In this document: positions 133 to 45,675 of the stretch, in pieces
How the letters are laid out: every line of letters starts with the position of its first letter
Numbering within the stretch: position 1 is the stretch's first letter
DNA from: Patescibacteria group bacterium
GTDB taxonomy: Bacteria > Patescibacteriota > Patescibacteriia > 2-12-FULL-57-11
Length of the DNA: 64,000 nt
NCBI GenBank assembly: GCA_004299275.1
Contig: SCSU01000066.1
Coordinates: 14,277 to 78,276 of the forward strand
Direction: 5' to 3'
Notes under the pieces: model-generated
What the model saw: the letters and a program-made list of their open reading frames with translations, nothing else
Database searches by the model: none
Told to the model about the DNA's origin: nothing
Program-made: the position numbers and the translations under genes

Positions 133-168
133 GACCTTCAAGGTCTGTTTTACAGACCTTCAAGGTCA
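133..168. repeat. GACCTTCAAGGTC hairpin doublet (TTCAA-loop family), copy 1
   Basis: ttGACCTTCAAGGTCtgttttacaGACCTTCAAGGTCaa. Same architecture as the copies at 7221, 41348 and 59507. Confidence 0.7.
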
Positions 169-2139: not shown

Positions 2140-3162
2140 TTACAAAAGCGTCGGTCTCTCCGGCGGCTTTAGTCCCAGATGTTCGTAAGCGCGTGGCGTG
2201 GCGAGGCGGCCGCGCGGCGTGCGTTCGAGGAACCCCAGCCGGAGCAGGAACGGTTCGTAAATTTCTTCAATCGTGTCCACTTCTTCCGCCGTGGCGGCGG
2301 CGAGCGCCGAAAGTCCGACCGGACCGCCGCGGAAGCGCTCGATAATGGCTGTGAGGAGCCGCCGGTCAACAGCGTCCAGTCCGAGTCGGTCAACCTCGAG
2401 CGAAGCGAGGGATTGGACGGCGATTTCACTCGTGATTGTACCGGAATGCCGGACTTCGGCATAGTCGCGGACGCGCTTCAATAACCTGTTGGCGACCCGC
2501 GGCGTGCGGCGCGAGCGGCTGGCAATTTCCTGGAGCGCAATTTCTCCCGCAGCAACTCCGAGCAGTTTGGCGCTGCGTTTCAAAATTGAAAGGATTTCTT
2601 TTTCTTCGTAATAGTCCAGCCGGTAGGTGACGCCAAAGCGGTCGCGGAGCGGCGAGGAGAGGAGCGACATCCGCGTGGTCGCGCCGATTAAGGTAAAACG
2701 CGGGAGGGTGAGCCGGAGGGTGCGCGCCGCCGGCCCCTTGCCCACGACGAGGTCTAGGGCAAAATCCTCCATCGCCGGGTAGAGCACCTCTTCAATTTGC
2801 CGGTTTAAGCGGTGGATTTCGTCCACAAAAAGCACCTCGCCCGGCTCGAGCGATGAGAGAATCGCGGCGAGGTCGCCGACTTTTTCGAGCGCCGGACCAG
2901 AGGTCACTTTAATCGGCACCCGCATCTCAGCCGCGATGACGTGAGCCAATGTGGTCTTGCCCAAGCCCGGGTTGCCGTAAAGGAGCACGTGTTCAATCGG
3001 CTCTTTGCGCCGGCGCGCGGCTTCGAGAAATATTGACAGGTTCTCCTTGATTTTTTCCTGGCCGACAAACTCGGCGAGCGTCTTGGGGCGCAGGGTTTGC
3101 TCAAAAATTTGCTCATCCGGCGCGGCTGCGGCGGCAGTGGGGCGTAGGTCGGGGAGAGGCAT
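2140..3162 (-). CDS. ruvB: Holliday junction branch migration helicase RuvB
   Basis: [18 protein letters not shown] Walker A, DEIHRL, and the conserved RuvB C-terminal domain. The start is chosen at MPLPDL, so the upstream part of the ORF is probably not translated. Confidence 0.93.
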
Positions 3163-3400: not shown

Positions 3401-3688
3401 CTAGCGGAGATGAAAGAGAATCGCGTCCGAGCTGTGGACACACTCGCGGATTGCTCCTGGGCCGAATGCGCCGGCGACGGCGTCCATGATGATGACGCGG
3501 GCGGTCAGCAGAGCATTCCCCACGGGCTTGGTTTCGCGCCAGTCGGCGAGCAGTCCTCCGGCTCGGTCGCGGACGAAGACCCGGAGCTTGCCGTTGCCCT
3601 CGTCGCCCCAGCTCACGTGGACTGTTGCGATTTCGCCGCGCACCTCGCGGAGAGGGCGGAGGAGGGTCACTGGTTTATCAGCCATCAC
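3401..3688 (-). CDS. hypothetical protein (B-type); a paralog lies at 4452..4736
   Basis: 95 aa; aligns with the 4452..4736 product (VHVSWGDEGNGKLRVFVRD vs VQISWDSVGEDGSMEVRLFD). Confidence 0.55.
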   Translation of the reverse strand: MMADKPVTLLRPLREVRGEIATVHVSWGDEGNGKLRVFVRDRAGGLLADWRETKPVGNALLTARVIIMDAVAGAFGPGAIRECVHSSDAILFHLR

Positions 3689-3702: not shown

Positions 3703-4152
3703 CTAGATGAGCGAAAAGCCGGCGTAACCGTGCCAGAGGAGCACCGCTTCGTTCCGAGGGTCGAGGATTGTCTCCTCGCCCGAGAAGTCAGCGAAGTCGA
3801 GGTTGGCTGGGAGATTGTGGTACTCGAGTCCGTCGCTCGTGAAGTGCGTTGGCCCGCGGCCGCCGACCCAGATCTCCTCCTCGTAGGCCGAGAGCAATGC
3901 TTGCCTCAAGAAGGGAATGACGCGCTCGTCGTCCTTGCGCCAGCCGCGGTAGTGCATTCCCCAGACCGGCTGCTCCCGCCACCAGATGAGTATCTGGCCG
4001 AGGACCCGCTTGCCGATCGTGTGGCAGTCATCGGTGTAGCGCCAGTCCCCCTTTTGGTAGAAGGCGCTGGCAGCTGCCTCGGCTCCTGATTTTCGGCAGG
4101 CCTCCCGGCTGGCCCCGAAAAAGAACTGCTTGATTTCGGCATGGTTCGGCAC
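3703..4152 (-). CDS. hypothetical protein (A-type), co-oriented with the B-type gene
   Basis: 149-aa ORF with 15 nt to the next gene; no domain recognised. Confidence 0.5.
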   Translation of the reverse strand: MPNHAEIKQFFFGASREACRKSGAEAAASAFYQKGDWRYTDDCHTIGKRVLGQILIWWREQPVWGMHYRGWRKDDERVIPFLRQALLSAYEEEIWVGGRGPTHFTSDGLEYHNLPANLDFADFSGEETILDPRNEAVLLWHGYAGFSLI

Positions 4153-4261
4153 GTTCCCCTCCTTTGTTTGGGCGCGATGAAGGTATCAGGTAATTTTTTT
4201 TGAGGCAAGTGGATGCTCGCCAGAGGCTCGACCTCCTCAGAGGTCGAGCCTCTGGCGAGCA

Positions 4262-4360
4262 TTCGGTTATTCGTACGTTCGTCGCCTGCTTAGTCGTACT
4301 TTCGCAAAATTCGTAATTCGTAGATTTGTACTGATTCGTAATTCGTAATCCGTAATTCGT
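4262..4360. repeat. TTCGTAA heptamer array (locus B), preceded on the - strand by a hairpin plus T-run terminator
   Basis: attcgtaattcgtagatttgtactgattcgtaattcgtaatccgtaattcgtaaccc. Then ataaaaaaaccgcgagacgtgtagtccgcgg, which is a rho-independent terminator in - sense. Confidence 0.7.
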
Positions 4361-4451
4361 AACCCATAAAAAAACCGCGAGACGTGTAGTCCGCGGCGGG
4401 GGCCGTCCTTCGCTAAAGCTACGGACGGTAAATGGCGTGCGATGACTCCGC

Positions 4452-4867: not shown

Positions 4868-4995
4868 TTCGCCTTGGAGCGGCTCACCCCTGGGCTTGCG
4901 CCGGTCCGATACCATCGGACCGGCTCGAGCCCGTTCGACTCCCACATTTCGGGAACACTTCGGAAAGCCTCGCATAGAAGCGAGGCTTTCCGAAG

Positions 4996-5078
4996 TGCCT
5001 GGGGTGGGACTCGAACCCACACGGCCTTGCGGCCACTCAATTTTAAGTCGAGCGCGTATACCATTCCGCCACCCAGGC
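4996..5078 (-). tRNA. tRNA-Leu (anticodon TAA), long variable arm
   Basis: 7-bp acceptor stem gcctggg/cccaggc, anticodon loop cttaaaa, T-arm gggttcgagtccc, no encoded CCA. Confidence 0.85.
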
Positions 5079-7213: not shown

Positions 7214-7220
7214 ATATCAG

Positions 7221-7263
7221 CACGGACCTTGAAGGTCCGTTTTTCAGACCTTTAAGGTCCGTG
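7221..7263. repeat. GGACCTTGAAGGTCC / CAGACCTTTAAGGTCC hairpin doublet, copy 2
   Basis: cacGGACCTTGAAGGTCCgtttttCAGACCTTTAAGGTCCgtg. Confidence 0.75.
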
Positions 7264-7266
7264 TCA

Positions 7267-7542
7267 CTATTTGACGAGCCGGAAGGGGTTCACGGCATTC
7301 TCCCACTGCGGTTCCTTTTTCATTTTCCGTTTTTTGTTCGCTTCAAGAATTTCCCGGAAGATTTTGTAGTCCAAAGGTTCAATCGCATATTCGCGCTGGA
7401 GCGTCACGATGTATTCGGTCTGGGTGATGGTTTTGTAGAGGTAATTGTAAAGAAAGAAAAAAATGAACAGGACGGAGATGAACACGCTCACAATCATAAT
7501 GAGGAGCGAAAGCCGGTAGATTTGTTTCAAAGTCAGCTTCAT
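7267..7542 (-). CDS. small membrane protein, hypothetical
   Basis: 91 aa with one TM helix; its end overlaps the next gene by 4 nt. Confidence 0.45.
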   Translation of the reverse strand: MKLTLKQIYRLSLLIMIVSVFISVLFIFFFLYNYLYKTITQTEYIVTLQREYAIEPLDYKIFREILEANKKRKMKKEPQWENAVNPFRLVK

Positions 7543-8820: not shown

Positions 8821-9936
8821 TTAGACGGAGTTCATGTGGCCGGAGGCCTCCATGGGGAGGAATCGCGCCGCGCGCCGCGCTAAACCGAGAGCCGTGGTGA
8901 ACGAGGCCGTTCGCTCGCGCGGGAATTTGTCGGGGATGGTGAGCCCGCCGAGCGGGTTGCCGCGAGAGACGCGCGTGAGCAGTTTTTGCGCCAGGTAGGA
9001 GTCGATTTTGAGCGTGTTGGCGCTGCCGCCGGCAAGCAGAATGCGTCTGACGCGGTGCCCGCCGGGGTTGCCACGGCGGTAGGCGAGTGTCGCGGCGCGG
9101 ACGTCCTCAATCAAGTCGCGCAGGATTCCAGCAACCACCGGACGGATACGATTGCCGCACCGCGCCGGGTCAAGACCGCAGCTGACCTTGGCTTTTTCCG
9201 CTTCCACCAGCGATACCTTGAGCCATTCCGCGATCTGCGCGGTCGCGACATCGCCCGAGAAGGAGAGAGAGGTCGTAAGCTGAATGGTTCCTTGGTCGTA
9301 GATGATAACGTTGGAGCGCGAGGCGCCGAGGTCGAGGACGGCGATGGCTTCGTCGTTTTGGCTCAGGATTTCGATTAGCAGGCCGCGGACAATGGCGATG
9401 GCCTCGATCTCTACCGCGAGGATGGTGAATCCGGCGGCCTCGAGCGCTGTCGAAAAATTTTCCACGAGCTCCCGCGGGGCGACGGCAACAATTACGCGCT
9501 GCCGCTCCGCGGCGGTCACGCCCGGAAGCGGCGGCAAGAGCTGCCAGTCCAGGGTCGCTTCTTCAAAGGCGAGGGGGATATGCGCCGCCGCCTCGCGAAT
9601 GACTTCGTCGCCGATGCGCTCCGATTCAACTTTTGGAATTTCGATGGTTTTGATGAAAGTTGTGGTTTCGGGCAGCGAGACGACGGCACTGCGCGTTTTT
9701 ATCGCTTTCGGCGTCGCCGTGCGGACCACCGCGCGGAGCAGTTTGGCGGCGGTTTCGGCTTGCTCCACCCTGCCCGGGGAAAATACCCCATCGGGCACCC
9801 GAACTTCGTTCCAAGTGCTCAATTCAAGGCGCGGTTTGCCGAAGACCAGCCGGTTGTACTGCAAATCCACCGCTTTAATTGAGCGGTCGCCGATGTCCAG
9901 TCCAAAGGCGTGATACGAGGATTCGAGCGAGGGCAT
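8821..9936 (-). CDS. pilM: type IV pilus assembly protein PilM (actin-like ATPase fold)
   Basis: FGLDIGDRSIKAV N-terminus and the general layout of PilM. Confidence 0.8.
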   Translation of the reverse strand: MPSLESSYHAFGLDIGDRSIKAVDLQYNRLVFGKPRLELSTWNEVRVPDGVFSPGRVEQAETAAKLLRAVVRTATPKAIKTRSAVVSLPETTTFIKTIEIPKVESERIGDEVIREAAAHIPLAFEEATLDWQLLPPLPGVTAAERQRVIVAVAPRELVENFSTALEAAGFTILAVEIEAIAIVRGLLIEILSQNDEAIAVLDLGASRSNVIIYDQGTIQLTTSLSFSGDVATAQIAEWLKVSLVEAEKAKVSCGLDPARCGNRIRPVVAGILRDLIEDVRAATLAYRRGNPGGHRVRRILLAGGSANTLKIDSYLAQKLLTRVSRGNPLGGLTIPDKFPRERTASFTTALGLARRAARFLPMEASGHMNSV

Positions 9937-9964: not shown

Positions 9965-11755
9965 TCACTTGATTTCGCGCCAGCTGTCTTTGGCTATCTT
10001 CCAAGTGCCGCCCGCGCCGCCAGTAAAACGGGAGTCGGCGAGCCCCGAGTCGTAGACGAGCGTCGCGTTGTTGGAGAGGTTGACTTTTTTGGCCGTGAGC
10101 GAGATAAGGCGCACGTTATTCTGCAGCTTGGCGAGCCCGTTCGGAGCAAAGAAGACTGCTCCCGTGACATTGTTCTGGAAATCCATAGCTGGATTGTCGT
10201 CGCCGCCCGCGGCGGTGGAGATAACCAGCACATAGGACCCCGCGCCCGCGCCTTGGAAGGCGGCGTTATTGGACACGCGCAGCCAGCCGTTACTCACCAG
10301 TACGCCGCCGTTCGAACCATAGCCGGCATCAAGGCGAATCTGCGAGTTGTTGTCTATGGTGACGTTGCCGCGGACGAAAAGCGTGCCGGTCATAATCAGC
10401 GTTTGGTTGTTGTCAAGAATCAGATTGCCGGTGATTTCTTTGGGGCCAAGATAGTTCGTGCTGTCCGCCGCCGGGCGGTAATCGCCGGTGATGACCCCGC
10501 CGCTTGAGGCCCCCTGCTGCCAATCATTGATTTGCGCATCGGAGAGCGGATAGACCGTCGGTCCCGGGTCGGGCGAGCCCGGGTAAGCGGTGCCGGCAAT
10601 TGAACAGCTCGCGATGGCCTGATAATAAGCGTCGCCAGTCACGCTGCAGTTTTTTATCGTATTGGCGCGGAGCGTTCCGCTGACCGTGACTTTGTCTAGA
10701 AACGTGGGGATGCCGCCCATCCAGGTTTTAAAGCCGAGGTCGGAATTGGCGTCGGACCAAACCAGGGTGGCTGGGCTGGTTTTGCCTGTGCCGCTCGCGT
10801 AGCCCTGGGCGGTGTCCTTGCCCCAGACCAGGTAATTTGAGGCGTCCAGCGTGGAGTTAATTACTATCCAGTATAGCCGACCGGCGGTGAGTGTCGGCGG
10901 CGCGGCAAAGCCGACTGTAACCCAGCCATAGGCGCCAGTCACTTGCGAGGACTCCAGCGTGGCGCTCGCGAGCGCACCGGTTTCCGGCTTGCCGCCGTCG
11001 TCCCCATTGATGCTCACGGTTTTGTTTGACGGCGAGCCGACCTTCTTTAAATAAAGCGAGACCAGGTTCAGCGGTCCGCCGGCCGTAGGGATAAAACTCT
11101 GCGCCGCGTTAATCACGGTCACTTCTTGGCCAAAAGGCAGGTCGTCGTTTTGGGCGAGCGATTGCTGGTTGGCCAGCGGTTGGGTGCCGCCGGCAATCCA
11201 AACATTGTTGGTAATGACCACGTTGTTACTGCCATTGATGTTGCCGTTCGAGTAGACATTGCCGACGACGGAAGAGTTGTTGTCCATTTCGAGTCCGCCC
11301 TCGCCGACCTGCAAAGCGTAGTTAAAAGACAAATTTTCGGACTTAATCGTCGCCTTGGCGCGGAAGCGCTGAGTCGCAATTGGCGCGGCGGCGTTTGGGG
11401 AGTAGGCGGTAACGTCAATCTGTTTGGTTAGGGGGTCGATTGTAGTGATGCTCGAGGTGTAGGTTGCTCCGGCGAGCGGGACGTTGTTTTCGCCGGTAAA
11501 ATTGCCGCCGGCGGCGCCGTTGCAGTCGGTTGCGGCTGTTGGGTTATTGAGGCACCAGACGGCTTTTTGAACTCCGGCGCTTGCCGCTGCGTTGGCCACC
11601 CGGCTCTTAGCTAAAGTATTGCCGGCGCGGAAGACCGCCTGATTAGTCTCGGAGAGGGCGACGGTGAGCGCTAGCACAAAAAAAAGCAGGACGGTCGCGA
11701 TCAGGATTGTCTGGCCGCTGGTTTGCCGGGTAAAAAATTGAGACGCGCGGGTCAT
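9965..11755 (-). CDS. large pilin-like/pseudopilin surface protein (N-terminal TM helix, 596 aa)
   Basis: N-terminal GQTILIATVLLF hydrophobic helix and a long Thr/Asn/Gly-rich extracellular region; lies within the pilus cluster. Confidence 0.5.
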   Translation of the reverse strand: MTRASQFFTRQTSGQTILIATVLLFFVLALTVALSETNQAVFRAGNTLAKSRVANAAASAGVQKAVWCLNNPTAATDCNGAAGGNFTGENNVPLAGATYTSSITTIDPLTKQIDVTAYSPNAAAPIATQRFRAKATIKSENLSFNYALQVGEGGLEMDNNSSVVGNVYSNGNINGSNNVVITNNVWIAGGTQPLANQQSLAQNDDLPFGQEVTVINAAQSFIPTAGGPLNLVSLYLKKVGSPSNKTVSINGDDGGKPETGALASATLESSQVTGAYGWVTVGFAAPPTLTAGRLYWIVINSTLDASNYLVWGKDTAQGYASGTGKTSPATLVWSDANSDLGFKTWMGGIPTFLDKVTVSGTLRANTIKNCSVTGDAYYQAIASCSIAGTAYPGSPDPGPTVYPLSDAQINDWQQGASSGGVITGDYRPAADSTNYLGPKEITGNLILDNNQTLIMTGTLFVRGNVTIDNNSQIRLDAGYGSNGGVLVSNGWLRVSNNAAFQGAGAGSYVLVISTAAGGDDNPAMDFQNNVTGAVFFAPNGLAKLQNNVRLISLTAKKVNLSNNATLVYDSGLADSRFTGGAGGTWKIAKDSWREIK

Positions 11756-12354
11756 CGGTTTTCAAGTTTACTTTGAGTCGAGAGCGCCGAGCGGATGGCG
11801 GCGTTGCCGGCAATCTCTTTGGTCTCGAGGTAGATTTCCACGAGTGTGGAGTTTGCCGGCGTGCTGGTATTGTATCTAATTCGGAAAACATCCACAAAAC
11901 TGGCGATGGTGTAGCGGCCGGTGCGCCGCACACTGCTTGTGGCCGCCTCAATTTCCTCCAAAAGAATGGTGTTGTCGCCGGGGTCTCGCCGGAAGCCGAT
12001 GAGGTCTGCGCCAGAGAGGAGCGCGCCGGCGGCGTTAATCGCCGGGAGACTGAAGACCACGGTGGAAGTGCCGGAAGTAAACGGTGTTCCGTTGACGGTG
12101 GCGCTCGCGAGCACCGCCGAGGCGCCCTTGGCCGCCTCGCGGATTAATTCGATGCCGCCCGCGGTCCGGCGCTCGACGTCCGCGGCCGCCCCCTCGCGGG
12201 TGTTAAAACGGATGACCGCGGCGGTCATCTCGGCGATAGCCAGCGCCAGTAGGGTAAAAACCGCCGCGGCGACGGTGAGTTCCACGGCCGTGAGTCCGCG
12301 CTGGTCAAACGGCGCGAAATTTTTTTTTGGCGCGAAATTTTGTTTGCGGAACAT
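11752..12354 (-). CDS. type IV pilin-like protein (prepilin N-terminal methylation domain)
   Basis: QRGLTAVELTVAAAVFTLLALAI matches the prepilin cleavage motif (G/LTAVE). Start chosen at MFRKQNF. Confidence 0.7.
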   Translation of the reverse strand: MFRKQNFAPKKNFAPFDQRGLTAVELTVAAAVFTLLALAIAEMTAAVIRFNTREGAAADVERRTAGGIELIREAAKGASAVLASATVNGTPFTSGTSTVVFSLPAINAAGALLSGADLIGFRRDPGDNTILLEEIEAATSSVRRTGRYTIASFVDVFRIRYNTSTPANSTLVEIYLETKEIAGNAAIRSALSTQSKLENR

Positions 12355-16308: not shown

Positions 16309-16407
16309 AGATTGTGTTGGTTGCTCTTATGATACCACGCGGACGACGACAAAAAAACGGCTCCGCATTTTGCGGAGCCGTTTTTTCGACGGCGAGCAGG
16401 AGGCCGT

Positions 16408-16899: not shown

Positions 16900-16956
16900 A
16901 GTTACAAAGGGTAAGTATACGCCTTTTGCGGGCAAAGACAACCGCGCGAACCGGAA

Positions 16957-16987
16957 GAGGTTGGATCTCCCAAGGAGATCCAACCTC
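16957..16987. repeat. GGAGATCC palindromic hairpin (GAGGTTGGATCTCC-caa-GGAGATCCAACCTC)
   Basis: Perfect 14-bp stem; family members at 33631-33662 and 36879-36913. Confidence 0.75.
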
Positions 16988-17045
16988 GAGGAGGTTTGCG
17001 GCCTTGCCTCTGTCCGTTCCTGTTGTTAAACTCATCGCACAAAAT

Positions 17046-17120: not shown

Positions 17121-17121
17121 A

Positions 17122-17160
17122 AGAAAACACGCTCCTCTTCACGAGGGGCGTGTTTTCTTT
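17122..17160 (+). terminator. hairpin terminator after tRNA-Gly
   Basis: gaaaacacgctcctcttcacgaggggcgtgttttcttt. Confidence 0.6.
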
Positions 17161-23498: not shown

Positions 23499-23705
23499 AA
23501 CTTTTTGGCGCCCCTCTCTGGCGCGTTATCCACAGTTCAGCGTAACACGAACCTTCCCTGCCTTGTGGATTACTCCTTGTCAAGCCCCCGAGTTTAGTCC
23601 CGAATTTCGTGATTTAAGTTCCCGAGCAAAGTCGAGGGACTACATAAAATCCGCATTTTGATCTCGACTAAGCGCTTCCTTATATATATGATGCCTTTGC
23701 CAGCC

Positions 23706-23737
23706 AAGGTCTGACCTTGCAAGGCCAGACCTTGATG
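23706..23737. repeat. overlapping GACCTTGCAAGG palindromes immediately upstream of tRNA-Leu(TAG)
   Basis: caaGGTCTGACCTTGCAAGGCCAGACCttg. Confidence 0.55.
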
Positions 23738-27922: not shown

Positions 27923-29656
27923 CCTAACCGTTAGTTCGGTGCACGCCGCTTGGGAGCCCCCGAGCGGTTTTTCGTTTCTAAGAGCTTCCGCGTTTGGCGC
28001 ATTGTGTTGACGAGACGTTGTCTTTGGCCACTGACGCTAGTGGGTGTCCAAAGTTCAGCGGAACGTGGCGGGACTTTGACAATTTAATGACGAATAAAAA
28101 GGGTAATGAAAAATAGCTCCATAAGCGCGAAAAGGACGTTTTCGTGCTTCAGTGGAGTGAGAGCATACACTAAGGGCAAACGGTGGATGCCTCGACACAA
28201 GAAGCCGATGAAGGACGTAGCAGCCTGCGATAAGCCCCGGGGAAGTGGCAAGCAACTTTTGATCCGGGGATTTCCGAATGGGGAAACCCATCGTGCTGGA
28301 AGAGCACGGTATCGTGCGCTGAATCCATAGGCGTACGAAGGGCACCTGGCGAAGTGAAACATCTCAGTAGCCAGAGGAAGAGAGACAAAAAATGCTGACC
28401 CAACAGACAACCGACAACTTACAACGAACAACCGAAAGGTTGGGAGTTGTTCGTTGATCGTTGTCCGTTGCGTCAGCTGGATTCCCCTAGTAGTGGCGAG
28501 CGAACGGGGACCAGCCGAAACTCCAGGCGTGATTCACCGAACTGACCCCGACTTTACGTCGGGGCGCAGACGGCTGATGAAGGTGTAGGCCGCTGCGCCT
28601 GGAGGGTAACAGGATCGTGACGTCGGACGCCTACTCGTCCGGGTAGAGGAAACCGCAAGGACATGTCTTCCCAAGCAGAATCCGCTGGAAAGCGGAACCA
28701 GAGCGGGTGATAGTCCCGTACGCGAATGGGGACATAACTCTACTGTCGCGAACCCTCAGTACCGCGGGTCTCGTGAAAGCCTGCGGGAAAGCGCCGCGAC
28801 TATGCGGCAAGGCTAAATACTTCTTGTGATCGATAGTGAACCAGTACCGTGAGGGAAAGGTGAAAAGCAGCCCGGAAGGGCGATGAAACAGTATCTGAAA
28901 CCGTTTGCTTACAAGGAGTCAGAGCCGTGCGCAGCACGGCGACTATCAACTACCAACTATCAACAAAACAACGGTCAATAATTCTGTTGCCCGTTGTGTG
29001 TTGTAAGTTGTGTGTTGGTTGTTGCCGCGCTGTGCGCGGTGATGGCGTTCCTATTGAAGAATGAGCCAACGAGTTTGCCGTGCGTCGCTTAGGTTAAGTC
29101 CCTGAGGGGACGAAGCCGGAGCGAAAGCGAGTCTGAATAGGGCGTATGGACTTTAGAGGCGGAGTTGGAGCCGGCGCGCAAGCGTCAAACCTCCAACTTC
29201 TCACCTCTAATTTCCAAAGGTGGCGCACGCAAGACCCGAAACCCGGTGACCTAGCCATGACCAGGGTGAACTCCGCCGAAAGGCGGAGGGAGGCCCGAAC
29301 CCGTAAGCCGTGCAACACTTTGGGATGAGTCGTGGTTAGCGGAGAAATTCCAATCGAACTGGGTGATAGCTGGTTCTCCCCGAAATAGCTTGAGGGCTAG
29401 CGTCGGTTACACCTCGCGAGGGGTAGAGCACTGAAAGGAAAGCGGTGGAGCAATCCTACGCGTTCCTACCAAACTCCGAATACTCGCGGGGCATCCCGGC
29501 AGTCAGAGCATGGGGGCTAAGCTCCATCGCTCAAAAGGGAAACAGCCCAGATCGCAGTCTAAGGCCCCTAAATCTTCCCGACCTAAAGTCGGGACTCCGA
29601 CACCGCAAGGTCGTCGGAGCGGTTAAGTGTCAAAGGTTGTGGAGTAACTTAAACAA

Positions 29657-29687
<31 letters not shown>

Positions 29688-30780
29688 TAAAGAAAGCGTA
29701 ACAGCTCACTGGTCAAGTCGCTCTGCGCCGAAAATATACCGGGGCTAAAACCGAGTGCCGAAGACGCGACTCCGACGTAAGTCGGAGGGTAGGGGAGCAT
29801 TCTGTCCGCGCTGAAGCCGCGCCGTAAGACGCGGTGGAGCGAACAGAAGGGAGAATGTTGGCATAAGTAGCAAAAAGACGGGTGAGAACCCCGTCCGCCG
29901 TAAACCCAAGGTTTCCTGGGCAACGCAAATCGTCCCAGGGTTAGTCGGTCCTAAGGCGAGGCCAAGAGGCGTAGCCGATGGATGAGCAGGTTAATATTCC
30001 TGCACTACGGCCGTGTCAGGCGCGAGAGGACGCGTCGCAATATCTTCCGAGTTCGAAGGCTACACTTCCGGTGTCGCAAGCCGGCCGCGAGGCAAATCCC
30101 GCGGCGCAAAGCAAGCGATGCCGGCTAGTCTGCGAGTAATCGCGGGCAAGGGAAGAAAATGTGGCGCCTAGAAAAGTCTCGCGATAACGGCATGGCCGCA
30201 CCCGTACCGGAAACCGACACAGGTGGGTGGGCATAAGTGTGCCCAGGCGTACGAGAGAAACATCGTTCAGGAACTCGGCAATACAGCGGCCGTAACTTCG
30301 GGATAAGGCCTACCCCGACGTAAAGTCGGGGTCGCAGCGAAAGACGCTTAGCGACTGTTTACCAAAAACACAGGTCCCTGCGAAGTCGAAAGACAATGTA
30401 TAGGGGCTGATGCCTGGCCAGTGTCAGAACGTTACGGGGAGAGGTCATGGCCGACGCAAGTCGGCCGGCAGCCTTGAACCTAAGCGCTGATGAACGCCGG
30501 CGATAACTATAATCGTCCTAAGGTTCCCTGAATCACTGGCAAGTGGTTCCGGGTAGGACTGGGACGATTATCGAATGGTGAACAAGCAAGCTACCTTGCT
30601 CTGCAGCAATGCAGAGAAAAAGTCCGTTAATGGCTAAATACCTACGTTTCCGAAGAACTAGGTAGGGAAGTCCGATTTTTCGGACCCCGAGAGACCATAC
30701 GCCATGCTCCCGACATACCGTCGGGATGAAGACATGGTCCTTCGTTTAAGGAATCGGAGAGCGAAATTCCTTGTCGGGTG

Positions 30781-30811
<31 letters not shown>

Positions 30812-31050
30812 GAGCGACTGTCTTAACGATGTACTCGGCGAAATTGCAAGATGAGTGAAGATGCTCATTACCCGTGGTTAGACGAAAAGACCCCGTGAAG
30901 CTTTACTACAACTTGCTATTGGCTGCATGCTTCGCCTGTTCAGCGTAGGTGGGAGGTCCGACGAAAGTCGGACCAACAATGAGACACCACCCTTGCGCTG
31001 CGTGCAGTCTCATCTCCGGCCGTGATCCGGCTGGGGAGACAGTAGCTGGT

Positions 31051-31096
<46 letters not shown>

Positions 31097-31166
31097 TTTA
31101 CCAAGGTCGGCTTAGCTCCGATGGAAACGGAGCTGGACGTGCAAGCGCACAAGCCGGCTTTACTGC

Positions 31167-31198
<32 letters not shown>

Positions 31199-31268
31199 AA
31201 GCTAGTGATCCGACCGTTCGAAGTAGGACGGCGGAAGCTCATCGGATAAAAGCTACTCCGGGGATAAC

Positions 31269-32119
31269 CCCAAAAGGGTTGTTGTCCCGATCCGACGGTA
31301 ACGTCGGATCATGAAAACGGCTAATAACGGTGGAGTCCCGCCAGGCGGGATAATACCGTGGGAAGTTCTTCGTCTCATCATCATAATTATGATTGAACGC
31401 GAACGAAATATCGTGATTGGTTGCGTACTTGGCGACGGTTTTCTCCAATCGACCGGAAGACATAACGCGCGGCTGCGGCTCGAGCATTCCATCAAACAGA
31501 AGGAATATCTCGAGTGGAAGTGGCGCGAACTGGCGCGCTATATGCAAGATCGCCCCAAGCGCCTGGTTCGTTGGAATCCGGTTTGGAAAAAACGTTACGA
31601 GTATCTGCGATGCCAATCGCACAGTTCGCCGCAATTCGGCAAGCTTCGGGAATTATTCTATCGCGATCAGACGCGGCAGGTTCCCGATGAGATAGCCAAG
31701 TTGCTGCGCTCGCCGCTCTCGTTGGCGGTTTGGTTTATGGATGACGGATATTACTATACGCGAGATCGCGTAGCGTATATCTATCTTCCTAAACTATCCG
31801 CCGATGACATTCGGCGTTTGTGTCAAGCATTAAATGATGATTTTGATCTTCATCCGAAGGTCGAACGCAAGAAAACTGGGGCACTAAACCTCAAATTTTC
31901 TGCGGCAGAAACGAAAAAATTAATTAAGATAATCGCCCCGCATATAATCAAAAGTATGCGGTACAAAATCGGCGAAGAACCCCGTATCGACTGAGTCCTA
32001 TGGACGAGGTGGCGCAGAGGAGGGAATATCCGCGCCACAATATGCCGTACTCCTTGTCTGGCGAGACAAGGATGAAGATATAGTCAGTGCCCTTAGTAAT
32101 AAGGGAGTAAAACATGAAC
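31269..32119 (+). mobile_element. group I intron 1 in the 23S peptidyl-transferase region (after GGGGATAAC), carrying a LAGLIDADG ORF
   Basis: The exon sequence GATAAC|AGGCTGATC is split by ~850 nt. Confidence 0.75.
31311..31994 (+). CDS. LAGLIDADG homing endonuclease (intron-encoded)
   Basis: Two LAGLIDADG-type motifs, [11 protein letters not shown] and [10 protein letters not shown]. Confidence 0.85.
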
Positions 32120-32200
32120 AGGCTGATCGGGTCCAAGAGTCCACATCGACGACCCGGTTTGGCACCTCGATGTCGGCCCGTCGCATCCTGGGGCTGGAGA

Positions 32201-32937
32201 AAACATACCTTCTCTCCTGCGAGGAAACTCGCGGGTAATAAACAAGCTCAAACGGTAGAGACCACACCATACGACCTTCCTGTTTCGGAGGTCCCAGGTC
32301 TGCTATAGTGCAGATGTATGACGGTTAATGCCGTAGGAAAGGAATGCGTTGAAGTCGATCGAGCATATCTTGCCGGTCTCATTGACGGTGATGGTGCCAT
32401 CATGGCTATCATCGAACCGCACAGTGAGAAGAAATTTCGTTTCCGTGTTCGGATCGAAGTAAAAGTGACTCAAAAGCATGAGGAAGACGTCTCGTTTTTG
32501 CCGAAACTTTTGGGTTGCGGATTGATTCGAACAAATAGGACAACGTATGAGTGGATTACACGAGACCAGCAACATGTCTTGCGTATCCTCTCAATGGTTC
32601 GTCCTTATACGAGAATGAAAAATCGGCAGATGGAAATAGCAATGAAGATCATCCGTACTCCGATACGGACTCAGGGTGATCTTTTGCGCGTTGCTCGATT
32701 GGCAGATGCATTGGCGCGTTTCAACGTGCGATCCAACAATCGCCGTAGGAACTATGCGACAATGATCGAAACGCATTTCTCCTCTAACGACTGATTGGTA
32801 AACGTTGGGTTTACCATGAGATATGCCCCGCCATGGCGGGGGTATCATACGGCTTGCACCTGTGTTGTGTCCGGTGACGGATATCAATATGGTGATGGAA
32901 TAGTCTGATACTCGCGGAAACGCGAGATAACAAAAAT
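32201..32937 (+). mobile_element. group I intron 2 in the 23S (after CCTGGGGCTGgag), carrying a LAGLIDADG ORF
   Basis: The exon sequence GGGGCTG..AGGTCCCAAGGGT is split by ~740 nt. Confidence 0.75.
32318..32794 (+). CDS. LAGLIDADG homing endonuclease (intron-encoded, single-motif type)
   Basis: YLAGLIDGDG motif. Confidence 0.85.
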   Translation: MTVNAVGKECVEVDRAYLAGLIDGDGAIMAIIEPHSEKKFRFRVRIEVKVTQKHEEDVSFLPKLLGCGLIRTNRTTYEWITRDQQHVLRILSMVRPYTRMKNRQMEIAMKIIRTPIRTQGDLLRVARLADALARFNVRSNNRRRNYATMIETHFSSND

Positions 32938-32965
32938 GAGGTCCCAAGGGTTTGGCTGTTCGCCA

Positions 32966-33288
<323 letters not shown>

Positions 33289-33630
33289 TCGGTCTCCTAT
33301 CTACCACGGGCGCAGAAACTTGCGGGGGCGCTCTCTCAGTACGAGAGGACCGGAGAGCACGAACCTCTTGTGTACCAGCTGTCCTGCCAAGGGCATCGCT
33401 GGGTAGCGAAGTTCGGAACGGATAAACGCTGAAAGCATCTAAGCGTGAAGCCGTCCCCAAGATTAGGTTTCATTACGAGACCCCAGAGAGATGATCTGGT
33501 TGATCGGCGGCAGGTGTAAGGCCCGCAAGGGTTTGAGCCGAGCCGTACGAATCGGTCCAGTGTGCTCCTCTAACCACTGAAGCACGAAGCCGTTCTTCAT
33601 TACCTATTTATTCGTCAATTTCAAAAGACA

Positions 33631-33662
33631 GAGATCCGATCTCCCATAGGAGATCGGATCTC
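33631..33662. repeat. GGAGATCC palindromic hairpin (GAGATCCGATCTCC-cata-GGAGATCGGATCTC) in the 23S-5S spacer
   Basis: Perfect 14-bp stem. Confidence 0.75.
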
Positions 33663-33687
33663 GATGTCGCTTTGGCCGCAGCATTCT

Positions 33688-33808
33688 CGGTGCCTCGAGC
33701 GAGGTGGTCACACCCGTTCCCATCCCGAACACGGCAGTTAAGCACCTCAGCGCCGATGGTACTTGGCGTAAACTAACGCCCGGGAGAGTAGGCCGGTGCC
33801 GAGTATAT
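33688..33808 (+). rRNA. rrf: 5S rRNA
   Basis: ggtggtcacacccgttcccatcccgaacacggcagttaagc...cccgggagagtaggccggtgccgag. Ends are approximate. Confidence 0.8.
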
Positions 33809-35627: not shown

Positions 35628-35680
35628 CTACGCAGTCGAGTTCCGATTCCCTCCGGAGATCGGCTCTCGTGCGTTATTTT

Positions 35681-36674: not shown

Positions 36675-37949
36675 ATGAAAACCATCCTTGACCTCCATAT
36701 CCACTCGCGTTTTTCGCGGGCCTGTTCCAAGGACCTCACCCTTCCGAATATCGCCCGGTGGTGCGAGCGGAAGGGGATTGACATTGTGGGCACTGGAGAT
36801 TTTACGCATCCGGTCTGGCTTTCGGAAATCAAAAACCAGCTCACCGAGAGCGAGCCGGGAATTTTTCGGCTCAGGATCGGAGATCCAATCTCCAGAACGG
36901 AGATTGGATCTCCAGCCCGTTTCATGCTCACGACCGAACTTTCCTCAATCTACAAACAGGGCGATAAGGTGCGTCGCGTGCACCATCTAATTTGCATGCC
37001 GACGATCGCGGCAGTAGAGCGTTTGGTCGCGGCGCTGGAAGCGCGCGGCTGTAACCTCAAGTCCGACGGCCGGCCGATTCTCGGCCTGAACTCCAAAGAA
37101 CTTCTACAGATAGTACTGGAAGCTGACAGCCGTTCGCTGCTCATCCCGGCGCACGCTTGGACGCCATGGTTCGCGATTTTCGGCTCGGAGTCCGGGTTTG
37201 ATTCCATTGAAGAATGTTTTGGTGACGAGTTAGCCAAGGAAATCCATGCCATCGAAACCGGACTTTCCTCGGACCCGCCGATGAATTGGCGACTGTCGGC
37301 GCTTGACCGCGTGATGCTCGTTTCCAATTCCGACGCGCACTCGCTCCGGAACCTCGGTCGCGAGGCGAATCAGCTGGACCTTGCCGAGCAGTCTTTTGAC
37401 GCTTTTTCCTCCATTTTGAAAAATCGGGACAGAACACGCTTTCTCCAAACGCTTGAATTTTTTCCCGAGGAGGGCAAGTATCACGCTGACGGCCATCGGC
37501 TCTGCGGCGCGCGCTTGACCCCGGCGGAGACTAAGCGGCAGGGCGGCAAGTGCCCGGTTTGTGGCAAGCCGGTCACGGTCGGCGTGCTCCATCGCGTGGA
37601 CGCGCTCGCCGACCGGCCGGAAGGGACGCGCTCGCCGAGCGCGGTGCCCTTTACCCATTTAGTACCGCTCGAAGAGGTCATTGCCGACACCCTCGGCAAA
37701 GGCAAGGGGACAAAAACCGTGAATGATTTGTATCTGAAGCTGACCGACATTGCGCCGGAGTTCTCGCTGCTCTTTGACTTTCCGCTTGCCGACCTCGCGG
37801 GAAGAGTTGCTGAACCGATTATTGAAGCGCTTCGTCGCTTGCGGGAGGGAAAGGTAAAAGTGCTCCCGGGCTACGACGGCGAGTATGGGACAATCAAAAT
37901 TTTTTCTGAAGAGGAACGACGCGGGCCGGCGCAGGGAAAATTAATTTAA
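36675..37949 (+). CDS. PHP-domain nuclease with a zinc ribbon, endonuclease Q-like
   Basis: LDLHIHSRFS PHP start, conserved His/Asp, and CPVCGKPVTVGVLHRV. Contains an in-frame 35-nt palindromic insertion at 36879-36913. Confidence 0.55.
   Translation: MKTILDLHIHSRFSRACSKDLTLPNIARWCERKGIDIVGTGDFTHPVWLSEIKNQLTESEPGIFRLRIGDPISRTEIGSPARFMLTTELSSIYKQGDKVRRVHHLICMPTIAAVERLVAALEARGCNLKSDGRPILGLNSKELLQIVLEADSRSLLIPAHAWTPWFAIFGSESGFDSIEECFGDELAKEIHAIETGLSSDPPMNWRLSALDRVMLVSNSDAHSLRNLGREANQLDLAEQSFDAFSSILKNRDRTRFLQTLEFFPEEGKYHADGHRLCGARLTPAETKRQGGKCPVCGKPVTVGVLHRVDALADRPEGTRSPSAVPFTHLVPLEEVIADTLGKGKGTKTVNDLYLKLTDIAPEFSLLFDFPLADLAGRVAEPIIEALRRLREGKVKVLPGYDGEYGTIKIFSEEERRGPAQGKLI
36879..36913. repeat. 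GGAGATCC palindromic hairpin inserted in-frame in a CDS (encodes ...GDPISRTEIGSPA...)
   Basis: GGAGATCCAATCTCC-agaac-GGAGATTGGATCTCC, a perfect 15-bp stem. Confidence 0.75.
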
Positions 37950-38675: not shown

Positions 38676-38733
38676 TTTGGCCGAAAAAGAGATTGGACCT
38701 CCCGCGGAGGCCCAATCTCTGTTATTATTTCAT

Positions 38734-39736: not shown

Positions 39737-39768
39737 AGGTTAGACCTTGCAAGGTCTAACCTTGACCA
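39737..39768. repeat. perfect palindrome TTAGACCTTGCAAGGTCTAA upstream of tRNA-Ile
   Basis: 20-bp perfect palindrome with the GACCTTGCAAGGTC core shared with 23706-23737. Confidence 0.6.
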
Positions 39769-39809: not shown

Positions 39810-39886
39810 GGGCGTGTAGCTCAGTTGGTTAGAGCGTCACACTGATAATGTGAAGGTCGGTGGTTCGACTCCACCCACGCCCACCA
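39810..39886 (+). tRNA. tRNA-Ile (anticodon GAT)
   Basis: gggcgtgtagctcagttggttagagc...ctGATaa...ggttcgactcc..cacgccca+CCA. Confidence 0.9.
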
Positions 39887-39887
39887 A

Positions 39888-39925
39888 GGAAAATGCTCCA
39901 GGTTCCCCTGGGGCATTTTCCTTTT
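39888..39925. terminator. hairpin terminator after tRNA-Ile (possibly bidirectional)
   Basis: aaggaaaatgctccaggttcccctggggcattttcctttt. Confidence 0.65.
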
Positions 39926-40394: not shown

Positions 40395-40456
40395 AAGATT
40401 AATTAATAAGTATTATTCTCCCTTTCTTAAAGGGAGTACCCGCAGGGGGGAGGGAT

Positions 40457-40861
40457 TTATAAAATTTTGTTATTTTGATTTTTCTGCAGAGCAATAATTT
40501 TATCGGCGAGAGTTTTGGGCAGGGCATCGGCCATGAGCGCCACGGTCGCGGTTAAAATCGCTATATCCCTCACCGTGATATCGGTAATGCCGCTCACGGT
40601 GAGGACAATCACGAGGTGAATCGCGCCGACGGCCGCCGCGAGCCAGACGTAAGTGTCCAGCAAAAGCAGGGCGCCGATTAGGATGTCTAAAATCGCCGTC
40701 CCGAGCATCGCTTGGGTCAGGGGTATCGGCAATAACCCGGCGGCCCAGGGCTGGAGATAGCCGCCCCAGGCCTCGGGTTCTTTGAAAATCAAAACTCCAA
40801 TCCAGAGGAAGGTTATACCCACGCCGACCCGCAGGATGTGGAATGAGGGCTTTTTCATCAT
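40457..40861 (-). CDS. DoxX-family membrane protein
   Basis: Four TM helices; adjacent to the VKOR gene. Confidence 0.5.
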   Translation of the reverse strand: MMKKPSFHILRVGVGITFLWIGVLIFKEPEAWGGYLQPWAAGLLPIPLTQAMLGTAILDILIGALLLLDTYVWLAAAVGAIHLVIVLTVSGITDITVRDIAILTATVALMADALPKTLADKIIALQKNQNNKIL

Positions 40862-40862
40862 A

Positions 40863-41309
40863 TTAAACCGCCAGACTTGCGATTATTATAAACCCCATGA
40901 GCCAGATGGTAAAAGCCGACATCAGACACCAAAAACACCAGGCGCGGATGACTTGCCACTGGAGGTAGGTGAGGAGGAGTGAGACGAGCGCCGCGGCGGC
41001 CACCAGAATTTTTAGGAAAATGTCCCACAAAGATGTCGGCTCAACGCCGATGACGAGCAGGGCGGCGATCGTAGCAATCACGATATAGGCCAAGAGCCCG
41101 AGGGTGTCATTGGGGACAATAAAAATTTTGTTGTATTTGCTCGTGAGCACTTGGGCACAGCCGCCGCCGATAGGGCAAATTGGTTTTTCCGCCGCAATTC
41201 TTTTTCGGATGAGATAGACGGTCTCGCTCACGCCAACAGCGGCCAGGGTAAAAAGCAGAGCAAAGGCGGTCATACCCGGTACTAGAATGCCGACTCCGAA
41301 CCCCGCCAT
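40863..41309 (-). CDS. vitamin K epoxide reductase (VKOR) family protein
   Basis: Loop cysteines CPIGGGC and active-site CFWC inside a TM helix; 4-5 TM topology. Confidence 0.65.
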   Translation of the reverse strand: MAGFGVGILVPGMTAFALLFTLAAVGVSETVYLIRKRIAAEKPICPIGGGCAQVLTSKYNKIFIVPNDTLGLLAYIVIATIAALLVIGVEPTSLWDIFLKILVAAAALVSLLLTYLQWQVIRAWCFWCLMSAFTIWLMGFIIIASLAV

Positions 41310-41347
41310 GCGGGATTCGGCCAGCGAACATCCTTTACGATTATTAG

Positions 41348-41391
41348 CACGGACCCTAAAGGTCCGTTTTTACAGACCTTCAAGGTCTGTG
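41348..41391. repeat. GGACCCTAAAGGTCC / CAGACCTTCAAGGTCTG hairpin doublet, copy 3
   Basis: cacGGACCCTAAAGGTCCgtttttaCAGACCTTCAAGGTCTGtg. Confidence 0.75.
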
Positions 41392-41464
41392 TCCAGCTTG
41401 CTGTCGTCGTTTCAGTACCGGGCATACCCGGCATTATAGCGCATTTGGAGCTGGATGAATTGCT

Positions 41465-42019
41465 CTAGCGCTCGACGTGGCGGTCGGCGACGGCGGCGGC
41501 GGCGTAGGCCTCGGGTTTGATGCGGGCGACAAAGCCGTTGCCGCGGACAACGCCGATGACTTCCTGAATCATTTGTTTGGTCGGGCCGTTCGGGCCGACG
41601 TCAACGTGGATTTCGATGTTCGGCGGCGGTTGTTCGCTCCCGAAGAGTTCAACAAGGCGTTGGGCGCAGTTGATGGAAAAAAGGGCTTCCTGCCAGATGC
41701 GGTCGCGGAGCGTGGCGAAGCGCGGGCTCCGGCTGTGTGTCCAAAAATAGCGGCCGCCGCGGCCGACGCGGTGCACAACTACGGCAGTCACAAAATCAAC
41801 CTCGAGCCCGACTTCGGAATCCGAGCCGACGACCAGCGAATAGCGGCAGGCGGGCTCGGCCTGGATGTAGGCGAGGATTTCCTCGGCGACTTCGTTTTCC
41901 TTGAGCAGACCTTTGCTGGGGCTCCTAAAAACAAGCTGCCTGGTTTGATTGTTCTGTGCTGTTTCGGACACGCGTTCCATAGTTCCAATCAGCCTAGCAG
42001 AGCTTGGTTTTTGGTTCAA
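41465..42019 (-). CDS. YkuK/DUF458-like RNase H-fold protein
   Basis: VVGSDSE..., VHRVGRGGRYFW, IHVDVG..K..IQEVIG.V.G.G pattern. The family assignment is from memory. Confidence 0.45.
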   Translation of the reverse strand: MNQKPSSARLIGTMERVSETAQNNQTRQLVFRSPSKGLLKENEVAEEILAYIQAEPACRYSLVVGSDSEVGLEVDFVTAVVVHRVGRGGRYFWTHSRSPRFATLRDRIWQEALFSINCAQRLVELFGSEQPPPNIEIHVDVGPNGPTKQMIQEVIGVVRGNGFVARIKPEAYAAAAVADRHVER

Positions 42020-43360: not shown

Positions 43361-43367
43361 TTTATTT

Positions 43368-43388
43368 ATCGGATGTTCAACATCCGAT
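43368..43388. repeat. perfect palindrome ATCGGATGTTCAACATCCGAT (TTCAA-loop hairpin family variant)
   Basis: 10-bp arms; a related half-site gttcaacatccgat lies at 63485-63498. Confidence 0.6.
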
Positions 43389-43435
43389 AATTGCACATTT
43401 GCCGTGTTTGTGCCATCTTTTTTGCAGGAGGTCTG

Positions 43436-43984: not shown

Positions 43985-45560
<1,576 letters not shown>

Positions 45561-45675
45561 AGAGAAAACCCCTCTACCCTCGCGGGTTTCGGGGCTCAAT
45601 CAATGAGTCATTACCCAACTTGCCTGCCATAGGCAGGCGTTGTTTTTGTTGTTGGAGTTTCACTCGAAAATTATA

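Follow-up and report, generated by a model that had tools for sequence, protein, structure and literature searches.

What kind of element is a short hairpin-forming sequence that recurs, mostly in inverted pairs, between the genes of a bacterium from the Candidate Phyla Radiation (CPR, Patescibacteria), a group whose genomes are among the smallest and most streamlined of all bacteria and in which repeats are not expected to be tolerated? We addressed this question for a stretch of 64,000 nucleotides (hereafter, the window) of contig SCSU01000066.1 (positions 14,277 to 78,276), part of the Patescibacteria metagenome-assembled genome (MAG) GCA_004299275.1. The nearest matches to its RuvB protein (gene at 2140-3162, - strand) beyond the host MAG are 83% identical and further matches are named Uhrbacteria, and by this comparison the host lies near the Uhrbacteria. 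The hairpins, organized as four doublets and a few single copies, probably represent a lineage-specific dispersed repeat resembling the repetitive extragenic palindromic sequences (REPs) and the REP doublets forming hairpins (REPINs) of other bacteria.

Copies, fold and origin of the doublets

The four doublets announced by the original prediction at 133-168, 7221-7263, 41348-41391 and 59507-59550 are all present, and three of them are wider than described. Copies 2 to 4 (c2, 7215-7267; c3, 41342-41395; c4, 59501-59554; all on the + strand, as is c1) align across about 52 nt with sharp edges, from TAYY-AGCAC to GTGT, and their flanks beyond the unit are unlike. The consensus of the full unit is TAYY-AGCAC-RGACC-YTNAA-GGTMCG-T5(A)-CAGACC-TTYAA-GGTCYGTGT. 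Copy 2 reads TATC-AGCAC-GGACC-TTGAA-GGTCCG-T5-CAGACC-TTTAA-GGTCCGTGT, the halves of c3 are perfect 7-bp hairpins (ACGGACC/GGTCCGT and ACAGACC/GGTCTGT), and the long hairpin of c4 has 16-17 consecutive perfect pairs. Copy 1 (c1, 131-169) is a short form without the AGCAC/GTGT flanks, with 17 of 18 positions paired between its arms (131-148 and 152-169); its spacer is T4A and not the T5 ascribed to it. An nhmmer profile built from c2, c3 and c4 and run over the window recovered its own three copies with E values of 2e-19 to 6e-18 (c3, 1.8e-19; c4, 3e-19; c2, 6.3e-18), c1 with 2.2e-8 and two single hairpins weakly (0.06-0.5), with no copies within coding sequence elsewhere in the window.

Single hairpins, two identical ones and a degenerate copy, were likewise located where they had been reported, none with an assigned strand. 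The pair lies at 54022-54042 (TACAGACG-TTGAA-CGTCTGTA; RNA fold of -11.7 kcal/mol) and at 54471-54489 (ACAGACG-TTGAA-CGTCTG), with identical cores, both reading ACAGACGTTGAACGTCTG(T). The inner stem pair of the 54022 singlet is G-C as against C-G in the doublet halves, so that both sides have changed. The degenerate copy (60660-60678, ACAGACG-TTTGA-CGTCGGC) is matched weakly by the profile (E=1.4). These copies define a basic unit of 19-21 nt, the imperfect palindrome (A)C-R-GACC-TTNAA-GGTC-Y-G(TG) (pattern type CAGACCYTNARGGTCTG), and a doublet consists of two units inverted around a T4-5(A) spacer, with the outer CAC/GTG flanks also standing inverted, in a module of 46-52 nt. In the form ACRGACC-TTNAA-GGTCYGT, the unit occurs eight times in doublets and two to four times singly, and 85.7% of its stem cells are paired.

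The doublets had been pictured as two short hairpins separated by T5, a geometry that the folds do not favor. On either strand, the minimum-energy fold of all four is a single hairpin of 17-21 bp with the T/A-run as its apical loop, which beats two short hairpins by 1-16 kcal/mol; the same long hairpin is the best fold as single-stranded DNA (ssDNA) in three of the four. Doublet fold energies lie between -23.6 and -32.2 kcal/mol and their z-scores between -5.6 and -9.5. For RNA, the values on the + and - strands are -26.7 and -27.7 kcal/mol for c1 (z about -7.9), -32.2 and -29.9 for c2, -23.6 and -31.4 for c3, and -31.5 and -30.3 for c4.

Over 12 units, four of the seven stem pairs are changed on both sides (A-T/G-C, C-G/G-C and C-G/T-A), and the covariation score of 0.299 compares with 0.139±0.039 for shuffled alignments, none of 500 shuffles reaching it; slid registers collapse. 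The looser members were chosen for palindromy, however, and quasi-palindrome correction at replication could also keep the arms matched. The earlier view that the stems covary around a conserved loop thus holds for the stems, whereas the loop center varies between C, G, T and A. The compensatory changes back its further contention that the constraint is structural, at the level of nucleic acid, rather than on protein sequence, and support the conclusion that the unit has been kept palindromic as a hairpin of nucleic acid and not by coding constraint. No Rfam family matches any copy at the gathering threshold.

The family is also more frequent than expected, as had been claimed. The motif GACCNNNNNGGTC has 9 matches in the window against 0.84 expected and a maximum of 4 in 100 shuffles, and GACCTTCAAGGTC with up to two mismatches has 22 against 1.72. 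Intergenic enrichment is evident too: 23 of the 52 occurrences of the hexamers GACCTT and AAGGTC fall in intergenic sequence, which makes up 21% of the window. An independent Logan assembly of run SRR8426596 contains c4 without a change (contig L008, which falls within the window), so that this copy is not an assembly artifact of the MAG. The dispersed family is therefore real, by its doublet and singlet copies and by this enrichment, and chance as its origin is effectively excluded. Another 2.2 kb from this genome (L015) hold no copy.

Beyond their palindromy, c2, c3 and c4 have oriented asymmetries in common, namely AGCAC on the left and GTGT on the right, a CCG-T5-CAG apex and a C·A mismatch beside the T-run. 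Such features are unexpected under symmetric selection, and c2-c4 therefore descend from one oriented sequence; on this alignment, the full copies are shown to have arisen in a copy-and-paste manner from one oriented unit. No consistent target-site duplication was seen on inspecting the c2-c4 alignment. All four doublets are co-oriented, with the T-run on the + strand of one replichore, which is the G-rich strand across the whole window. This fits ssDNA transposition, but with n=4 the chance of such agreement in orientation is 0.125 (two-sided).

Relatives and a transposase locus in Moraniibacteriota

Syntenic regions of relatives with RuvB proteins 78-83% identical (L004, L006/7, L009/10, L011/12, L013/14, L016 and L017/18) provide the comparison for the spread of the family, which is absent from all of them. 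The orthologous sites at the 3' end of the AAA gene and upstream of PolX, VKOR, HSP20 and DHH/SMC are empty, but these relatives are distant (RuvB at most 83%). In place of the element, the AAA gene of relatives ends in a canonical terminator or a different hairpin, the VKOR leader is unrelated to that of the window, and upstream of HSP20 three relatives have simple -10 boxes of the TATAAT type and lack the palindrome; genes to the right of c3 have no orthology with L006. Among the relatives compared, these alignments show the family to be restricted to this lineage.

One relative, GCA_041643055.1 (L004), carries a long-hairpin family of its own, (AAGCRT)3-4 ... loop ... (AYGCTT)3-4, with 34 word matches against 2.2 expected, whereas the other relatives have ordinary terminators only. 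Its hairpins (943-1001, 2125-2189, 3401-3465, 3745-3803, 11379-11400, 11987-12002 and 12179-12194) leave 4-5 nt to the preceding stop codon and 5-13 nt to the following start codon, and they occupy nearly every gap of the pilus operon, the RuvB-AAA region and the site upstream of PolX. Because two copies are mutually reverse-complementary at their center, the L004 family occurs in both orientations. One copy lies in the pilM-pilN gap, which measures only 2-3 nt in the window and in L006, and therefore represents an insertion polymorphism; this clear case of presence and absence concerns L004's own family and not that of the window. The apical stems of the two families (AAGGTCGA/TCGGACTT in L004 and AAGGTCTG/CAGACCTT in the window) have AAGGTC in common, a hint of common ancestry.

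A strict doublet pattern of 23 specified bases, for which we estimate about 0.05 chance matches in 596 Gb, was matched once in 185,579 species genomes and twice in Joint Genome Institute (JGI) metagenomes, in no case from a close relative, and had zero matches in IMG/VR. The genome match lies on a 2.9-kb contig (JAGYNK010000101.1, L001) from a MAG of Ca. Moraniibacteriota. Its doublet (1653-1692) lies in frame inside an open reading frame (ORF, 1474-2142), where it codes for CSRPEGSVKTDPSGLG. The product matches Pfam Y1_Tnp (E=5e-7), and its best NCBIfam match is 'REP-associated tyrosine transposase' (RAYT; E=1e-6), under the curated cut-off. Single hairpins, which the search pattern did not demand, flank this ORF 15 nt upstream (1441-1459, CAGACCC-TAA-GGGTCTG(T)) and 11 nt downstream (2153-2171, CAGACCC-TTA-GGGTCTG(TG)). 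A RAYT-type transposase flanked by palindromes that it is thought to mobilize is the defining REP/RAYT layout (PMC3337134).

The units of L001 stand one compensated pair (C-G vs T-A) apart from CAGACCT-TNA-AGGTCTG(TG) of the window, and the two sets have in common the CAGACC/GGTCTG stem with a 3' TG, a 7-bp stem around a 3-5-nt loop and an A/T-run as doublet spacer. In both, moreover, a copy supplies the stop codon of the gene upstream: the pgk stop in L001 is the loop of the upstream hairpin, much as c1 contains the stop of the AAA gene. They differ in the inner pair, which is C-G and not T-A in L001, in the loops (TAA, TTA, GAA or TTC) and in the transposase gene adjacent to the L001 copies. 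Since different CPR lineages are involved, common descent and convergence of the two sets are indistinguishable; the comparison nevertheless shows, at the level of sequence, the same hairpin type associated with a RAYT-like gene elsewhere in CPR.

REPs and REPINs are well known, mostly from Proteobacteria. REPINs are defined as short extragenic imperfect palindromes in inverted doublets that fold into one hairpin (PMC3337134), and the window family consists of a short repeated palindromic core, in inverted pairs that form one hairpin, mainly outside genes. As with the REP sequences and bacterial interspersed mosaic elements (BIMEs) of Escherichia coli and the GI-GIII families of Pseudomonas fluorescens, the doublet yields one near-perfect ssDNA or RNA hairpin, less regular singlets accompany the doublets, each species has its own sequence, and a genome holds several families. 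Indeed, the window holds a second family of like nested-palindrome design (GGAGATnnnATCTCC twice), which counts in favor of this reading; the singlets may then be remnants or a subfamily. Unlike in REPINs, each unit of the window is itself a near-perfect palindrome, so that the doublet is a direct as well as an inverted repeat; unlike known REP hosts, the organism is a CPR bacterium with a reduced genome. Our literature search returned no paper tying REPIN or RAYT to Patescibacteria, and Patescibacteria are not mentioned in a 2025 REP survey (PMC12306157).

The family also resembles the palindrome-associated miniature inverted-repeat transposable elements (PATE-type MITEs) derived from IS200/IS605. 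In those too, subterminal hairpins are the sole conserved parts and neither classical terminal inverted repeats nor a target-site duplication are present, and a one-sided tetranucleotide (here TAYY, left of c2-c4) and co-oriented copies on one replichore are further points of likeness. Unlike for IS200/IS605 elements, no TnpA or TnpB is found near the window copies. The REP/REPIN-like repeat would have spread through a single-stranded hairpin intermediate handled in trans by an HUH/Y1 (RAYT-like) transposase encoded outside the window, and the one-sided TAYY, conserved in three copies, may be its target or cleavage site. Once transcribed, a hairpin of -24 to -32 kcal/mol could act secondarily as a barrier to 3'-exonucleases or as a target of RNase III. 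It could also slow ribosomes that finish or start beside it, as for E. coli REPs near stop codons, which are reported to stall ribosomes in work cited in PMC12306157.

Gene context and rival explanations

Copies at gene ends and in divergent regions had been anticipated, and the positions of doublets and singlets bear this out: all are extragenic, save that 17 nt of c1 fall within the 3' end of a gene. That gene (150-1307, - strand) encodes a membrane-anchored Clp/Hsp100-like AAA+ ATPase of 385 aa with a single nucleotide-binding domain (NBD; Pfam AAA and AAA_lid_9). Copy 1 overlaps about its last 6 codons (IDLEGL), not 9 as first counted, and the stop codon (150-152) lies inside the c1 spacer. 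The inference of an insertional truncation ahead of NBD2 is refuted by three relatives, the orthologs of which (L004 12307-13461, 384 aa; L006 12065-13207, 380 aa; L017 8355-9536, 393 aa) have the same N-terminal membrane helix and one Clp-type NBD1, with no NBD2, in an end-to-end alignment of 71% identity. Because these orthologs of 380-393 aa have the same single-NBD architecture, the protein is not truncated. The tail differs only past EW(I/S/V)G(K/R), with KPIDLEGL in the window and SEIKNHR or T in relatives; by this alignment, c1 has merely replaced the stop and a few variable C-terminal codons. The arrangement of the single-NBD AAA+ gene beside RuvB and a bPH_2 gene is conserved across the clade.

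Copy 2 occupies the 53 nt that separate the PolX ATG (7213) from the stop (7267-7269) of a pilus-operon gene; this gene, of 91 aa, has an extra 4-residue tail relative to its ortholog. Copy 3 lies in a 191-nt gap between an RNaseH-like gene (41465-41980, -) and VKOR (40863-41273, -), and c4 between the HSP20 ATG (59494, -) and a divergent GH53-like gene (59622, +). The center of the 54022 singlet is 42 nt upstream of the ATG of an SMC/SbcC-like gene (51738-53990, -). That of the 54471 singlet is 39 nt upstream of the ATG of a DHH-family gene (54519), which is followed by clpP, and this singlet sits after the canonical terminator (54429-54448) of a small zinc-ribbon ORF. One of the two identical 19-nt singlets lies on each side of this ORF (54146-54409; 87 aa, with a CPxC...CPxC zinc ribbon and a transmembrane helix); at its position, relative L009 has a 293-aa gene instead, and the ORF may be an inserted cassette. 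The degenerate singlet lies 16 nt past the GH53-like stop, with its center 36 nt before the ATG of a HicB-like ORF (60705).

Several observations weigh against a REP/REPIN-like origin. No Y1/RAYT gene was found in the 64-kb window by Pfam scans of about 55 ORFs and tblastn with the L001 protein, nor in the fetched loci of relatives by the same means. Much of the likeness of the L001 doublet to the window doublets was imposed by the search pattern itself. Copy number stands at four doublets and two to four singlets, counted in the 64-kb window only. The module of 46-52 nt, with a spacer of merely T4-5(A), is shorter than the 89-bp REPINs of P. fluorescens (PMC3337134). REPINs are described as persisting by vertical descent, but the sequence is missing in relatives with RuvB 83% identical, and the L004 family has only the apical AAGGTC in common with it. 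Finally, the palindrome center lies 36-46 nt upstream of six ATGs (PolX, HSP20, SMC/SbcC-like, DHH, adenylate cyclase and HicB-like), a placement that would suit a DNA-binding regulator too.

A quite improbable explanation along these lines is that 13-bp palindromes, GACCTTNAAGGTC, are operators bound by a dimeric or tetrameric factor that controls a stress/repair regulon. The palindrome centers of a doublet are 22-23 bp apart, about two helical turns, and the genes downstream include PolX, HSP20, VKOR, the SMC/SbcC-like gene and the DHH (RecJ/NrnA-like) gene with ClpP, with the Clp-like AAA gene on the 3' side; in relative L009, a palindrome TCAAGGGACCTTGA precedes the DHH gene by 30 nt. The six starts at 36-46 nt are by our own count. 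A Shine-Dalgarno (SD)-like motif (GGAG/GAGG/AGGA at -20 to -5) precedes just 16 of 56 predicted genes, despite a 16S rRNA 3' end (about 43990-44000) that reads GGATCACCTCCTTTCT and carries CCUCC, and many gene starts lie a few bases downstream of TA-rich, -10-like boxes, which suggests that many window genes have short or absent leaders; a site some 40 nt ahead of the ATG would in that case lie near -40 from the transcription start. The grouping of the genes is post hoc, however, and strictly defined only two of seven are stress or repair genes. The offsets to the ATG vary (18/40 nt for PolX, 23/46 nt for HSP20 and 85/108 nt for VKOR, with PolX and HSP20 differing by 5-6 bp), and at c2 the unit abuts the preceding stop and ends 1-4 nt before the PolX ATG (the hairpin base, 7 nt); because it fills this gap, there is no room for a promoter. 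Compensatory changes in the arms fit a hairpin rather than a protein half-site, and a conserved unit of 52 nt with non-palindromic flanks far exceeds operator size. Relatives lack the element upstream of HSP20, VKOR, PolX and the AAA gene, with plain TATAAT-type boxes at HSP20; a relative's clpP is preceded instead by CIRCE (controlling inverted repeat of chaperone expression), and in relatives the 8-mer GACCTTGA is as frequent as background. The window yielded no DNA-binding regulator.

It is also unlikely, though the evidence is in part favorable, that the hairpins are selected cis-acting RNA structures of the host (RNase III processing sites, stabilizing 3' hairpins, attenuators or unconventional terminators) copied by recombination rather than transposition. 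Very stable hairpins form on the - strand, which at c1-c3 is the sense strand of the neighboring genes; stop codons directly adjoin c1 and c2, and the L004 hairpin occurs in nearly every gap of the same pilus operon; the ribosome stalling reported for E. coli REPs points the same way. The first hairpin of a doublet with its T5 even fits, formally, an intrinsic terminator on the + strand, having a G+C-containing stem followed by a T-run. A reading of the T-runs as terminators nevertheless fails, for although the first hairpin passes a naive filter, there is no + strand gene upstream, the T-run lies inside the loop of the long hairpin with no U-run after it on either strand, and the T-runs are antisense to neighboring genes. 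Proper terminators with A-tract, stem and T-tract stand at other gene ends, including just before the 54471 singlet, and ordinary bidirectional ones elsewhere in the window (e.g., 16344-16394 and 48700-48742). Relatives manage without a hairpin at the same junctions, and in the window the pilM-pilN and 80-aa/bPH gaps measure 2-8 nt; the L004 copies lie in both orientations, and the conserved unpaired TAYYAG flanks have no obvious RNA role. A host RNA function would at the same time agree with a mobile REP that has been co-opted into a secondary role.

An extremely improbable explanation is that the family is a species-specific, inverted-pair tag for DNA uptake by the competence/type IV pilus machinery, even though the window includes a type IV pilus operon. 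Six bases of the Neisseria DNA uptake sequence (DUS; GCCGTCTGAA) recur in the singlet arms CAGACG/CGTCTG, and DUS in inverted pairs likewise give hairpins at the ends of genes. The density here is about one unit per 6-8 kb, as against a frequency of about one per kb for known uptake sequences, with no copies within genes; the motif is missing in relatives expected to have the same dialect, and the conserved unit is 52 nt, not 10-12 nt.

Three further candidates were tried and rejected. The left flank of c3 and c4, T(T/C)TAGCAC, resembles the left arm of CIRCE (TTAGCACTC-N9-GAGTGCTAA) and c4 lies upstream of HSP20, but the likeness extends to 7 bases with no second arm at N9, and the window contains no CIRCE even with three mismatches. 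In relative L009, a near-consensus CIRCE, TTAGCACTC-N9-GACTGCTAA, is found upstream of clpP (9640-9670, -). The flank GTGCTRRTA was considered as an extended -10 box and dismissed, as it abuts the ATG in c2 and key -10 positions are not kept; a sigma-70 scan gave no promoter at c2-c4. An integron attC site, suggested by the fit of GTTGAAC to GTTRRRY, was dropped with no integrase found and the R''/L''-L'/R' spacing absent.

The REP/REPIN-like reading leaves room for function, and it is doubtful, though conceivable, that each lineage retains its own hairpin family as operon punctuation, or as a network bound by a RAYT or a regulator, for processing and re-initiation or for coordination of stress and repair genes (PolX, HSP20, the ClpP neighborhood and the SMC/SbcC-like gene). 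As punctuation, the hairpins would serve RNase III-type processing, or termination and re-initiation, between the stops and starts of mostly SD-less genes. The finding leaves knowledge of how REPs work unchanged and would gain weight if the hairpins proved to be such retained punctuation in SD-poor genomes. Collectively, the two nested-palindrome families of the window, the L004 family and the Moraniibacteriota RAYT-like locus suggest that REP/REPIN-type elements live in CPR bacteria with fast turnover. They matter for gene calling, where the elements donate stop codons and C-terminal tails, and for studies of gene expression in uncultured CPR organisms; for assembly and binning, such repeats could be one cause of the short Logan contigs of the same sample.

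Related palindromes and other features of the window

Three palindromes that had been linked to the family stand at varying distance from it, none with an assigned strand. The CGGATG/CATCCG variant is present as a 10-bp perfect palindrome (43366-43390, TTATCGGATG-TTCAA-CATCCGATAA; DNA fold z of -7.35). It was missed by the nhmmer profile of the doublets but fits C-R-G-A-Y-S-TTSAA-S-R-T-C-Y-G via two further compensated transitions, so that its kinship, which had been taken as given, is at most plausible. Both palindromes described as directly upstream of tRNA genes exist. The one at 23705-23734 (AAGGTC-T-GACCTT-GC-AAGGCC-A-GACCTT; DNA fold z of -3.3) ends 3 nt ahead of tRNA-Leu(tag); it has the same hexamers as the doublets in another order, with a common core of merely 12-13 nt, and its 23713-23726 segment reads GACCTTGCAAGGCC, one mismatch from the sequence first given. 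The other (39737-39768, AGGTTAGACCTTG-CAAGGTCTAACCT; DNA fold z of -5.5) ends 42 nt before tRNA-Ile (39810, +), the ATG of a divergent adenylate-cyclase gene (39714, -) being nearer, at 23 nt.

The second nested-palindrome family consists of two GGAGAT-nnn-ATCTCC palindromes separated by N3-5, with 8 matches against 2.1 expected. Its sites are 16956-16988, 33630-33663, 36879-36913 and 38685-38723, with a partial one at 35655-35669; one copy lies in the 23S-5S spacer, one inside a 424-aa ORF and one between convergent genes. A third small repeat, a 46-nt segment at 40415-40460 with the hairpin CTCCCTT-N5-AAGGGAG, is 91% identical to positions 47-91 of L015, which lie upstream of the SpoIID gene in another part of this genome. 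The longest inverted repeat of the window, a perfect 23-bp stem with a 4-nt loop, is among the sequences at 4213-4262, 4308-4362 and 63956-64000, and heptamer tandem arrays (AATTCGT x7 and AAATACC x6.4) lie near it and at the window end; the inverted repeat and the arrays all fall in apparently non-coding sequence.

VKOR and clpP have an upstream segment of about 45 nt in common (41274-41320, -; 55711-55757, +), a 10-bp hairpin CCGAAyCCCGC-NNN-GCGGGGTTCrG followed by AGTCGGCrTTCTAsTACCGGGT-ATG. Its last part, CTAG(T/C)ACCGG, is also carried by HSP20 (59495-59507) and by the ORF at 3401-3688, and from its sequence the segment could be a common promoter or leader of proteostasis genes. Hairpins of another kind follow four of the five tRNA genes, with near-perfect stems of 17-20 bp that overlap the last 1-4 bases of the gene (4956-4997, 17121-17159, 39886-39923 and 61607-61651). 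The hairpin after tRNA-Glu has a perfect 20-bp stem and lies beside a GIY-YIG ORF (61293-61553) that overlaps the 5' end of the tRNA.

The rRNA genes comprise an intron-interrupted 23S, a 5S and an unlinked 16S; such a split and unlinked layout with 23S introns is typical for CPR bacteria. Group I intron sequence of about 2 kb, within which lie two ORFs for LAGLIDADG homing endonucleases (31311-31994 and 32318-32794), breaks the 23S gene (28160-33559) near its 3' end. A candidate array of clustered regularly interspaced short palindromic repeats (CRISPR) at 28.4-31.2 kb was dropped, the stretch being 23S rRNA gene. The final 23S exon (33314-33559) is followed by the 5S gene (33686-33804), and the 16S gene (43989-45566) lies 10 kb off on the opposite strand to the 23S.

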